Assembly: GCA_037444405.1 (NCBI GenBank)
Contig: JBBIML010000007.1
Span: 32,001-96,000 of the forward strand
Source of the DNA: Armatimonadota bacterium
Lineage (GTDB): Bacteria; Armatimonadota; Fimbriimonadia; Fimbriimonadales; GBS-DC
Direction of reading: 5' to 3'
DNA length: 64,000 nucleotides
Part shown: in pieces, positions 25,605-29,510 of the stretch
Layout of the letters: every line of letters starts with the position of its first letter
Numbering within the stretch: position 1 is the stretch's first letter
The notes under the pieces: generated by a model
The model's input: the letters and a program-made list of their open reading frames with translations, nothing else
Database searches by the model: none
What the model was told of the DNA's origin: nothing
Position numbers and translations under genes: made by a program

Positions 25605-26355
25605 CAATCTGTTACTTTCAGCGTCTTTTGGACGCCTACTGACCTTGCCTCTGGCAAGGCGGGTAAGCCTTTCGGCTTACCTCTGCATGTCGCCATGCAG
25701 TTCGGACTGTCTCTTCACCCTGTGGGCTTCAGGGTGTCCGGCGTACAGTCTCTGAGGGTTCCAGATGAGAGTAGATGGTTTTGATATCGATCTTCCGATA
25801 AGCTCCGTTGTCGTTCATGCTCACAGCGATCTGCAGGATTGCTTTGAAGCCTGCAGGCGTGAGATGCTCTCTGTTATGGAGCTTTCGGACAATCGTGGCG
25901 AACTTCTCAAAATCGTGGCGTTTGGTGGTGCGGAGCGGATAGCGCTCAAAGAAGGGGATGACCTTCTCCAAGAGGTCTTTGCGTGATCGCACCACAAACA
26001 CCCAGGTTTTGTCGTTCGGTTTGCGACGGTCGTTCGGCTTCAGGTAGCCGCAACCCAGCGTGTCTCGGATGAGTTCCAGCACGCTCTTGTTTCGTTCGTG
26101 CTGGGAGACATGGAGTTCTGGAATGACCTGCCAGCCCAGTTTCGTACTGGGATTACGCTGGATGGCTACATGAAAGCTGCCTTCGCCGTCCACAAACCCA
26201 GCGATATAGTAGCCCAGACTCTCATCTGGCCTTCCCTGCTGATTGCCTGCACCTGACGCATTGTTACTCATGTGCTGAAGTATAGCACATGAGTAGCGCA
26301 GGATACTAACCAGGCTTCCCAGCATATAGCCGGATTTATAGACAGCACGGTGAGT
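25605..26355 (-). mobile_element. Group I intron at ~L2604 (751 nt)
   Basis: Exons GAGACAGT^TCGGTCCC; IGS GCTGTCT gives U.G at the 5' splice site; P/Q/R/S elements TGCTGGGAA, AATCAGCAGG, TCAGAGACTG, GAGACAGTCC; terminal G. Confidence 0.93.
25729..26271 (-). CDS. Single-motif LAGLIDADG homing endonuclease (L2604 intron)
   Basis: [28 protein letters not shown]. Start uncertain. Confidence 0.9.
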
Positions 26356-26402
<47 letters not shown>

Positions 26403-26412
26403 TGAACCCCCC

Positions 26413-26471
<59 letters not shown>

Positions 26472-26685
26472 CCGCCGTCGCTGTGGACGCTCGGGCAGGA
26501 TCAGCCTGTTATCCCTAGGGTAGCTTTTATCCGATGAACCCTGGCGTGCCCACGCACTGCCAGAGGGTCACTAGGCCCGGCTTTCGCCTCTGCTCGACCC
26601 GTAGGTCTCACAGTCAAGCCCGCTTATGCCCTTGCACTCGACGCGCGATTTCCGACCGCGCTGAGCGGACCTTTGGACACCTCCG

Positions 26686-27321
26686 TTACCGTTTAGGCAA
26701 TTGCGTTCGTGCAGTCGCTGGCAATTTGTAACGCATTTCGGGTATCAGGTACGGTTCAACCAGTTCCAGGAACCCTGGGAGGTTCCGTCCTGGAATGACA
26801 ATCTGATACCCTTCGGCTTGCCGTCGCAGGTACGCTTCCAGTCCAAACCGTTCGGAAAGCAGCTGTGCCAGTCGCTCGACCTCCTCGCGCTGGAACCCCT
26901 GGGTGTTGAACAGCACGGCTTTCGCTTTGGGGTCTTTGAGGGAGCCGTCGTCCATGAACCAGTATGCCAGGCTACGGGGTTTCAGCCAGCGATGAAGCAG
27001 AGGTGGCACGCGCTTGCGCCCCTCGCGATAGAACTGGTGGGCGTAGAATCGGAAGGCGCCGTGGCTGACGGTCTGGAACCACCAGTTGCCGTTCGATTTC
27101 TGCTGGGGTGGTGTGAGAACCCATTCCTGGAAGAGCTGATAGAGGTGCTGCACATAGGCAGCGTGCGTGGCGCCCTGTTCGATTTTGAGGCGATAGGTGC
27201 GTCCGCGATTGTGCGTTTCCAGGTGGGCATCGCCCAGCAGGATTCCCACCAGCACCTCACGCTGGATGGGCGTGAGCTTGAGTTGCTGTTTATCGGTTTC
27301 GATGGCGCGTGTGTGTGCCAT
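26686..27321 (-). CDS. Double-motif LAGLIDADG (I-SceI-like, LAGLIDADG_2) homing endonuclease (L2262 intron)
   Basis: LVGILLGDAHL and LAYWFMDDGS; AAGGAGG RBS; stop codon lies in the 3' exon. Confidence 0.9.
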   Translation of the reverse strand: MAHTRAIETDKQQLKLTPIQREVLVGILLGDAHLETHNRGRTYRLKIEQGATHAAYVQHLYQLFQEWVLTPPQQKSNGNWWFQTVSHGAFRFYAHQFYREGRKRVPPLLHRWLKPRSLAYWFMDDGSLKDPKAKAVLFNTQGFQREEVERLAQLLSERFGLEAYLRRQAEGYQIVIPGRNLPGFLELVEPYLIPEMRYKLPATARTQLPKR

Positions 27322-27625
27322 AGCGACCTCCTTCGTCTGCGACGGACTGCACGCCTCCTGTGGGGAGGCTTCCGGTCGCCCGGAAGTTCAGACTGTCTCA
27401 CCATCCACGCAAGGTGGATGCTCGGCGTACAGTCGTTGAGGGGTCACGAGGACTTCCCTGCTGATTGTCCGCACCAGTCGCATTTTCAGTGGCGCAGGCG
27501 CCACTAGCGCTGGATGCTGCACCCCTTCCTCAAAGCACGGAGGTGCGGCTTTGAGTGAGGGGACGGACTTCCCAGCATATAGCCGAGTTTGCCTCCGATG
27601 TTGCCATCGGAGCGCCCCACTGTTG
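26698..27625 (-). mobile_element. Group I intron at ~L2262 (928 nt)
   Basis: Exons GGGGCGGTCGCCT^CCTAAACGGTAACGG; TGCTGGGAA, AATCAGCAGG, TCAACGACTG, GAGACAGTCT; terminal G. Confidence 0.93.
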
Positions 27626-27928
27626 AGGCGACCGCCCCAGTCAAACTACCCACCTAAGACTGTCTCCGAACCGGCTCACGGTTCGGGTTAGCACTTCAGC
27701 AGACCAAGGGTGGTGTTCCATTGACGCCGAAGCTCCCACCTACGCTCTACATGATCTGCCAAAATGCAATCTCAGGCTGTAGTAAAGCTCCATAGGGTCT
27801 TTCCGTCCCACCGCAGGTAACCCGCATCTTCACGGGTAGTACAGTTTCACCGAGAGTCCCGCTGAGACAGTGGCCCAGTCGTTACGCTTTTCGTGCGGGT
27901 CGGAATTTACCCGACAAGGAATTTCGCT

Positions 27929-28685
27929 TATCGCCTTACTCGAGTTTACTCGAGCGAGCCATTACCCCCCTTGTCACAGGGAACGGCTCCTGCATGTCGC
28001 CATGCAGATGGGACCATATCATCACCTCGTCATTGAGGTGTCCGGCGTATGGTCTCTGAGGATTCTAATCACTGCGGAGCGGTCTTTGCGCCGATTCATG
28101 GAAGCGGCTATCTGGGCTATTGTTTCGAGACCTTCTGGTGTCAGATGGTCTCCGCGTGCGACATGCTCCAGACAGCGCGCGAACTTCTCAAAGTCGTCTC
28201 GTTTTGCGGTTTGGAGGGGGTATGTTTGGAAGAACGGGACGATGACTTCGAGAAGGTCCTTGCGACGGCGCACCACATAGCGATACAGGTGTTCCTTGTG
28301 GTTGTCATGGCGTCGGTTTCGGATAATATTTCCGACGCCAAAGAAGTGGCGTAGGCGCTCCAAGGCGTGCAGGCTACGCTCGCCTTGGGTGACAGAGAAC
28401 TCATGAAACACCTGTATGCCGACTTTGTAGCCTTTGCGGAGTCCTCTATGCGGCTGCTGAATGAAGCCGATAGAGAAACAACCTTCGCCGTCTACAAAGC
28501 CGACGACCCATCCGACAGTGATTAGTCTTTCCTGCTGGTTGTCCGCACCAGACGGATTGTTACTCATAGGAAACGGTTTCGTTGAAGACAGGGAGTTTCC
28601 TACGAGTACCGCTGGATACCCCGGAGTTTCCAGCATATAGCCGGATGCGCACCACATGGTTACCCATGTGGGGGGCAGCGAAGCT
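27929..28685 (-). mobile_element. Group I intron at ~L1931 (757 nt), apparently ending in A
   Basis: Exons GGTCCTATGGT^AGCGAAATTCC; P1 GGUAGC-UUC-GCUGCC; TGCTGGAAA, AACCAGCAGG, TCAGAGACCA, GATATGGTCC. Confidence 0.92.
28022..28567 (-). CDS. Single-motif LAGLIDADG homing endonuclease (L1931 intron)
   Basis: WVVGFVDGEGCFS; IVPFFQTYPL..AKRDDF. Start uncertain. Confidence 0.9.
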   Translation of the reverse strand: MSNNPSGADNQQERLITVGWVVGFVDGEGCFSIGFIQQPHRGLRKGYKVGIQVFHEFSVTQGERSLHALERLRHFFGVGNIIRNRRHDNHKEHLYRYVVRRRKDLLEVIVPFFQTYPLQTAKRDDFEKFARCLEHVARGDHLTPEGLETIAQIAASMNRRKDRSAVIRILRDHTPDTSMTR

Positions 28686-29510
28686 ACCATAGGACCGTTA
28701 GAGTTACGGCCGGCATTCACCCGGGCTTCAGTTTGGGGCTTTGCCTTGCGGCTGACCCCTCCCCTTAACCTACGGGCATTGGCCAAGCGTCGCCCCCTAT
28801 ACATCGGGTTTTCCCCTTAGCAGAGAGCTGTGTTTTTGGTAAACAGTCGCCAGGCCCTCTTTGCTGCGACCTCCCTCCGCTTGGGCGTTGCAGCCTACAC
28901 GGTGGGAGGCACCCCTTCTCCCGAGGTTACGGGGTCAATTTGCCGAGTTCCTTAGCGGGACTTCTCTCGCGCGCCTGAGGCTCCTCGCCTCGCCTACCTG
29001 TGTCGGTTTGCGGTACGGTCAGGTGGGTTCATCGCGGAACGGCTTTTCTCGGCTGCAGTCGGGGTCGCTTCGGTTGCCCGAGGGCTTCCTTCGTCGCCGG
29101 TGCGTTGCCTCACCGGCGAGCGCGGCCTTCCAGCTCCGCGCCCGACCCGTTCTACAGCGTCCCCGTTCGCGCTCCGCCACCTGGGGTGGGAATGTTGACC
29201 CACTGCCCTTCACCTACGGCGTTTCGCCCTCGGCTTAGGACCGCCTAACCTTCAGCGGACGAACCTGCCTGAAGAACCCTTAGGCTTTCGGCGGACGGGA
29301 TTCTCACCCGTCTTCTCGCTACTCGTGCCGGCATTCTCACTTCTGCACGCTCCAGTGGTGCTTCCGCTCCACCTTCACGGCGTGCAGAACGCTCCCCTAC
29401 CGCTCACCAGCGCAGGGCTGGTGAACCCGCCGCTTCGGCGACCAGCTTAAGCCCCCTTACATTGTCGGCGCAGGGTCACATTCGGCCAGTCAGCTGTTAC
29501 GCACTGTTTA

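Follow-up and report, generated by a model that had tools for sequence, protein, structure and literature searches.

The 64,000-nt stretch of DNA analyzed here (the window) carries one rRNA operon on its minus strand, consisting of a 16S gene, two tRNA genes, a 23S gene and a 5S gene. Three group I introns split the 23S gene, each with a LAGLIDADG gene, and the middle intron contains an open reading frame (ORF) that borrows its stop codon from the downstream exon. This intron (928 nt; 26698..27625, minus strand) lies after E. coli 23S U2262 (site L2262). Rfam scores were 58.3 bits for the middle intron (RF00028; gathering score: 50; matched positions: 27369-27635) and weaker for the two others (29.7 and 29.0 bits), and the Pfam E-values of the three intron ORFs were 1.4e-47 (PF03161), 1.3e-25 and 5.3e-19 (PF00961). 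The assembly (2.68 Mb in 40 contigs, 98.9% complete) contains the L2262-intron stretch once, so that no empty site is evident, and a tmRNA gene is found in the same assembly (RF00023; 180.5 bits; contig C13).

The third intron (25605-26355, minus strand) occupies E. coli site 2593, with a 5′ exon end at T26356 and a terminal G at 25605, after which the exon resumes with TCGGTCCC. Its LAGLIDADG_1 ORF (25729-26325) crosses the conserved ribozyme core, where a 12-residue peptide is encoded, and stops 124 nt before the intron end. The first intron (about 27929-28700, minus strand) lies near site 1931; the 260-codon frame listed for it (28022-28804) extends without a stop from the upstream exon through the 5′ splice site. 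A repeated AG leaves the boundaries of this intron ambiguous, and no choice of them gives both a U in front of the 5′ splice site and a terminal G. In their cores, the L2262 and L2593 introns have a 35-nt stretch in common (86% identical; 26228-26262 and about 27450-27484), which is the ...CAATCAGCAGGGAAG... element.

Anatomy of the L2262 intron

Read on the minus strand, the sequence is ...GGTCGCCT / CAACAGTGGGGCG... across the 5′ splice site and ...GAACGCAATTG / CCTAAACGGTAACGGAGG... across the 3′ splice site. The 5′ exon ends at U27626, which is paired with a G of the P1 guide sequence, the last base of the intron is G26698, and the exon resumes with CCTAAACGGTAA. A BLAST alignment to E. 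coli rrl placed window position 26697 at C2263 (E. coli reads GGTCTCCT-CCTAAAGAGTAACGG there) and the ORF stop at U2272-A2274. The intron flanks align without a gap to E. coli U2262 and C2263, so that excision restores the host sequence. Judged by model score, the U-G pair in P1, the terminal G and the continuity of the flanks, the element is a group I intron.

The ribozyme core (P1-P9; 27369..27635, minus strand, including 10 nt of 5′ exon in P1) lies entirely upstream of the ORF and was aligned to the covariance model over model positions 1-253 of 253. The P9 hairpin (27386-27369), taken from this alignment, is followed by a small P9.1 hairpin (27368-27354), and both are found in the minimum free energy (MFE) and centroid folds (together 27354..27386, minus strand). 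Next come the 5′ arm of a helix that closes off the ORF (CGTGCAGTC; 27345..27353, minus strand), a Shine-Dalgarno-like AAGGAGG (27327..27333, minus strand) placed 5 nt before the ATG, and the ORF itself (26686..27321, minus strand; 211 codons plus TAA), which encodes a LAGLIDADG homing endonuclease of the I-SceI family by PF03161 match and homology to PDB 1r7m. Purine-rich GGAG-like stretches upstream of the start were also seen, by eye and uncounted, in many relatives. The 3′ arm of the helix (GACTGCACG; 26708..26716, minus strand) lies within ORF codons 202-206. It is followed by the 10-nt intron 3′ tail (AACGCAATTG; 26698..26707, minus strand), which ends in the terminal G and is read as T-Q-L, and by the first 12 nt of the 3′ exon (23S C2263-A2274; 26686..26697, minus strand), which are read as P-K-R-stop according to the ORF translation and E. 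coli numbering. The final ten codons are thus made of the helix 3′ arm, the intron 3′ tail and the first nine exon bases, and the ORF tail reads KLPATARTQLPKR before the stop. In relatives, the consensus of the intron 3′ tail is (G/A/T)AAC-N-Y-AA-U(U)-G.

The first-pass annotation of this DNA had described an ORF without a stop inside its intron, running through the terminal G at 26698 and stopping 12 nt into the 23S exon, and all of its coordinates hold. It had also placed the ORF in a loop of P9 closed by a perfect 9-bp helix. The two arms (27353-27345 and 26716-26708) are indeed perfectly complementary over 9 bp at exactly these positions, but the helix is of P9.2 type and follows P9 and P9.1 rather than belonging to P9. 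When the 703-nt 3′ segment is folded (z-score: -3.88), the helix forms after P9 and P9.1 in the MFE and centroid structures alike. If the RNA is cut after G26698, the excised linear intron has no in-frame stop before its 3′ end, and the earlier reasoning that only RNA with the 3′ exon contains a stop, leaving the linear excised intron as a non-stop message, is correct as sequence logic. The length predicted there for a full-length circle, 31 added codons before a TGA, is likewise exact when G26698 is read into C27625.

In the RNA run search, shares were small (at most 0.12 of sampled words). Four mixed hot-spring or mat metatranscriptomes were compared with positions 26340-28000, in which the exons were heavily covered and the intron interior (26732-27515) was without cover. 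A joint skipping exactly 928 nt was found in X2 (3 contigs), X3 (7 contigs) and X4 (2 contigs) and in no contig of X6; with sides of at most 36 nt in mixed communities, these joints may come from intron-less relatives. No circle back-joint was found among the metatranscriptome contigs, which gave zero cover of the intron interior.

The endonuclease and the helix that closes its gene

Homology to I-SceI (PDB 1r7m) extends over query residues 11-206 (E-value: 3.7e-35), and the PF03161 match covers residues 21-182 (E-value: 1.4e-47). Both acidic motifs align with those of I-SceI (query LGDAH versus LGDAY; FMDDG in both), and the two proteins share the fold ending PYLIPxMxYKLP. D124 and G126 do not vary across 46 sequences, and D31 hardly does; we take the motif acids D31 and D124 to be the catalytic residues of a LAGLIDADG enzyme. 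An AlphaFold2 model computed with 46 sequences had a mean pLDDT of 89.2 and a pTM of 0.86, with a mean pLDDT of 54 for residues 201-210 and values <50 for residues 206-211. Over residues 1-201, dN/dS was 0.047-0.15 against the five nearest relatives of equal length, by which measure the gene is maintained under strong purifying selection in this region.

The last codons are constrained differently. Against the same five relatives, dS was 0-0.30 in codons 202-211 versus 0.30-2.8 in the body of the gene (small numbers), and dN in codons 202-211 was 0.12-0.41 in pairs whose tails differ in protein. Because synonymous change is suppressed while the protein sequence varies to this extent, the tail appears to be held by a constraint on the RNA and not on the protein. 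Some natural relatives end at ...YKLP or ...ARQT. As part of the drift explanation given below, we think it rather probable that the functional protein ends at about ...YKLP (residue 201), and that the last 10 codons are set by the helix arm, the 3′ tail and the rRNA.

Pairing of the two helix arms was compared across 46 loci, which contain 31 distinct 3′ arms. An initial test of the longest contiguous helix against mononucleotide shuffles was noisy (mean: 8.1 versus 6.3, with many chance helices), and an anchored test with arms swapped between loci was used instead. Here the mean pairing was 7.1 of 8 positions for a locus's own arms versus 6.07 of 8 for swapped arms; the arms paired at 8 of 8 positions in 14/46 loci and at 7 or more in 37/46. 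By this comparison of sequences, the ORF-closing helix covaries in relatives. One locus (L084, a Caldisericales metagenome-assembled genome) has an ORF-less intron of 297 nt at L2262 that keeps both helix arms and the same 3′ tail, and apparently derives by deletion from the ORF-bearing form found in L029.

Position of the stop codon in relatives

Relatives were collected by a scan of one genome per species, which gave 52 loci, 47 of them with the L2262 exon landmark directly downstream; the five remaining loci are at most 37% identical and located elsewhere. Because the search used peptide patterns taken from the window's own protein, these 47 loci are biased toward its relatives. A separate scan with a 5′-junction 16-mer gave at least 120 stretches, and 7 of the 80 examined (L063-L142) had the L2262 exon landmark, the others having matched elsewhere by chance or being too short to include it. 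Going by record titles, the 47 loci span about 15 phylum-level groups, with hosts in Armatimonadota, Chloroflexota, Planctomycetota, Bacteroidota, Ignavibacteriota, Elusimicrobiota, Omnitrophota, Bipolaricaulota, Caldisericota, WOR-3, Actinomycetota and Patescibacteria, an alphaproteobacterium, and others.

For each locus, the frame was walked from the match start to the first stop. The first-pass annotation had proposed that L2262 homologues be checked for the same overlap, with stops within the intron counting against its reading, and the outcome was divided: 23/47 loci use the same exon UAA in the same frame, and in 18/47 an intact gene ends within the intron at a distance of 5-22 nt from the 3′ splice site, in most cases at a TAA where the window has CAA. 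A further four loci stop in the exon in other frames, three after reading 43 nt into the exon and one at the TAA inside CCUAAA, and two are broken by frameshifts (L046 and L051; stops 241 and 302 nt upstream). The three that read 43 nt (L024, L038 and L040, all Elusimicrobiota) have a tail that is one base shorter, which shifts the frame and adds about 14 exon-encoded residues. Only two loci were seen with a changed exon UAA, L011 (UAC) and L099 (CAA), and both stop inside the intron. In a large protein search, the C-terminus (L/M)PKx, which is the exon-encoded ending, was found in 96 of the best 120 protein clusters (80%). Since 23/47 loci and 96 of the best 120 clusters share the exon ending, the missing stop characterizes the family and is no peculiarity of this genome, and recurrence of the same frame with the same exon stop in 23/47 loci places the borrowed stop beyond chance.

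Among kin of the host, the protein or its paralogues were found in 8 of 41 genomes searched, with the window's own counted; 4 of 40 relatives had a close L2262-type copy (≥72% identity), and none of these 4 was among the 3 same-genus genomes. This patchiness means "not found" rather than "absent", as rRNA operons are often missing from such assemblies. The protein tree mixes phyla and does not follow the hosts. Given the patchy occurrence among kin and this mixing, the distribution of the predicted L2262 homing endonuclease fits that of a mobile element. In some relatives, a second I-SceI-family gene (35% identical; G011:C14:115564-116157 and G009:C5:56240-56842) follows the L2262 gene at a distance of about 350-800 nt, presumably within a further 23S intron that has no counterpart in the window.

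To follow the stop position through the family, we used a tree of 44 proteins, from which two partial and two frameshifted rows were left out and the tail columns were removed beforehand. On this tree, no fewer than 11 changes are required to account for the three stop states, and well-supported branches alone force 4 or more changes of the exon-stop state. Shuffling the labels gave a mean of 16.4 changes and reached the low observed number in 1 of 200 shuffles; the states are thus clustered beyond what shuffled labels show, and several well-supported clades are uniform in stop state. In the segment that separates the conserved YK(L/I/V) from the splice site (25 nt on average), the ORF frame contains a stop triplet in 17/46 loci, and the other two frames in 7/46 and 19/46 (related loci treated as independent); in-frame stops are thus not avoided in the tail. 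Mean G+C of the ORF was 0.51 in exon-stop loci (n = 24) versus 0.46 in loci with an in-intron stop (n = 18; Mann-Whitney p = 0.023, with related loci again treated as independent), which is the difference that drift between CAA and TAA would give. Selection on the exon stop is probably absent or weak; given its presence in 80% of the best 120 clusters, the uniform clades and the clustering relative to shuffles, some selection for it may exist.

Explanations for the borrowed stop

Judged by the distribution of stop states, the borrowed stop comes and goes in evolution and resembles a side product of tight packing more than it does a tuned switch. The coupling of endonuclease expression to splicing had been put forward in the first-pass annotation as a designed property; against this stand the in-intron stops of 18/47 loci, the 11 or more changes of state, stops that are not depleted in frame and a circle extension that ranges from 0 to 78 codons. 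We favor, with a fair degree of belief, the explanation that the coupling is real but an unselected side effect of tight packing in this lineage. The endonuclease gene lies in the loop of the last peripheral helix, packed so tight against the intron 3′ end that its frame continues through the helix 3′ arm, the 10-nt tail with its terminal G and 9 nt of exon to end at the near-invariant U2272-A2274. The side of the splice site on which the stop comes to lie, always close by, would then drift, with U or C at one tail position giving TAA or CAA.

Such packing would have consequences for expression in the present genome. The ribosome-binding site would be exposed once transcribed, with about 650 nt still to be made before the 3′ arm and the splice site are in place, and a first ribosome could read the precursor while it is being synthesized and finish at the exon UAA. 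Normally terminated enzyme would be made only from RNA with the 3′ exon, which may be nascent or unspliced pre-rRNA or the intron-3′ exon intermediate. A ribosome at the ORF end would have to melt the helix arm and cover the 3′ splice site, and with the arm unwound and the splice site covered by the terminating ribosome, termination and exon ligation would be mutually exclusive. After exon ligation, the free intron would be a non-stop message on which ribosomes stall at the 3′ end; rescue by tmRNA would clear the free intron, and the product would be tagged for degradation. In relatives with a TAA six bases upstream, such as L012 and L014, the tmRNA-rescue step would not apply.

The same facts can be read as the work of selection. 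The missing stop would then be maintained as a self-limiting switch, with productive synthesis only from unspliced transcripts and with the intron and its protein handed to tmRNA/SsrA, so that little of a nuclease that could do harm would be present in a cell with its sole target site already occupied. Agreement with this idea comes from the excised linear intron without an in-frame stop, the presence of a tmRNA gene, the strong ribosome-binding site, and the single occurrence of the stretch in a 98.9%-complete assembly with no empty site evident. The exon stop is moreover predominant in 96 of the best 120 clusters and uniform in several supported clades, and both loci with a mutated exon UAA (L011 and L099) carry in-intron stops. 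We nonetheless regard a selected switch as unlikely, as intact genes of 18/47 loci have their own in-intron stop, stop state changes at least 11 times on the tree and tracks base composition, and in-frame stops are not depleted relative to other frames. Similarly doubtful is the proposal that splicing strips the message of its stop and makes the intron an obligate tmRNA substrate, with synthesis limited to a pioneer round on nascent pre-rRNA, the abundant intron RNA cleared by non-stop decay, and the arrangement selected in exon-stop lineages. It is mainly because both forms exist among close kin that we rate the coupling as a side effect over a selected device.

Splicing state would be irrelevant if the gene, like the phage T4 intron ORFs, were expressed as a separate transcript from a promoter inside the intron, since such an RNA would be without the 5′ ribozyme half, could not splice and would always reach the exon UAA. 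This would explain why the missing stop is harmless. We hold it to be quite improbable: a scan found 0 sigma-70-like promoters in 26400-27900 on both strands (0.3 expected; only the sigma-70 consensus was scanned, and promoters of this phylum are poorly known), and the region upstream of the ORF is conserved ribozyme core. Decay offers a further way to lose a stop, and a decaying relic would agree with the frameshifted loci L046 and L051 and with a single rRNA operon that offers no empty target. Purifying selection over residues 1-201 (dN/dS: 0.047-0.15), the alignment of both catalytic motifs with I-SceI, the confidently modeled fold and the intact ribosome-binding site make a relic very unlikely here. 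Least credible of all is translation from a full-length circular intron, which would add a 31-residue C-terminal extension. The frame does continue across the would-be junction for 31 codons (QQWGAPMATSEANSAICWEVRPLTQSRTSVL, then TGA), but in a comparison of the window with 24 relatives that likewise have no stop in the intron, the length of the extension is anywhere between 0 and 78 codons. In the nearest two, whose proteins are 93% and 92% identical to that of the window, it is 78 and 1 codons, and no reading frame is conserved across the junction. That nothing conserved is encoded past the junction follows from the stretch being ribozyme P1-P5.

Several known systems resemble the L2262 arrangement in part. 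The I-SceI gene of the omega intron in yeast mitochondrial 21S rRNA likewise encodes a monomeric, double-motif LAGLIDADG enzyme in a group I intron of large-subunit rRNA; the I-SceI target site is L2449, whereas the host here is a bacterium and the site is L2262. Phage T4 introns contain ORFs such as I-TevI in td and I-TevII in sunY/nrdD, the latter placed between the core and a remote 3′ splice site, and the interplay of ORF translation and ribozyme folding has been studied in these introns. As at L2262, the T4 ORFs occupy a loop at the periphery of the intron's 3′ part, and the 3′ splice site is made after the whole ORF has been transcribed; unlike at L2262, they have their own stops and their own promoters and reside in phage protein-coding genes. 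Archaeal 23S L1927 introns (I-Vdi141I lineage) differ in being protein-spliced through a bulge-helix-bulge, in their LAGLIDADG family and in their site.

The 23S L1917/L1931/L2593 introns of Synechococcus sp. C9 provide a case of several endonuclease-bearing group I introns in one gene (Haugen et al. 2007, PMC1995217). ORF nucleotides there double as ribozyme structure, a dual constraint noted by the authors, and the ORFs stop inside the intron (in P9), whereas the L2262 ORF in the window stops in the exon. ORFs extending into ribozyme core elements are also covered in a review (Hausner et al. 2014, PMC3984707). The available portions of these two articles make no mention of site 2262, of an exon stop or of tmRNA in this sense, and those of the I-Vdi141I paper (PMC2602781) do not discuss an exon-supplied stop. 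According to a 2024 survey of rRNA insertions in the Candidate Phyla Radiation (PMC11270868), several 23S group I sites between 1952 and 2593 are new for bacteria; the string "2262" is absent from its main text, and its supplementary site tables may list the site among the unnamed new 23S sites. Our literature search found nothing on L2262 group I introns within a scope that excluded older subscription papers, so that a description from, for example, green-algal chloroplasts is possible. The same search found no exon-supplied stop for an intron endonuclease, no tmRNA acting on an excised intron among the matches listed, and no paper on a change of the I-DmoI C-terminus by circularization, which had been cited as known in the first-pass annotation. 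The L2262 intron family is large, spread over many phyla and apparently undescribed.

Expression of a homing endonuclease gene must leave intact the ribozyme that hosts it, and how this is done in bacterial rRNA, which is very abundant and not meant for translation, has been little studied. The natural one-base variants, with the stop in the intron or in the exon, are a ready pair for asking if splicing, termination and tmRNA rescue interact. Even without such an interaction, the locus would be a clean example of nucleotides that are coding sequence, ribozyme structure and rRNA at once.
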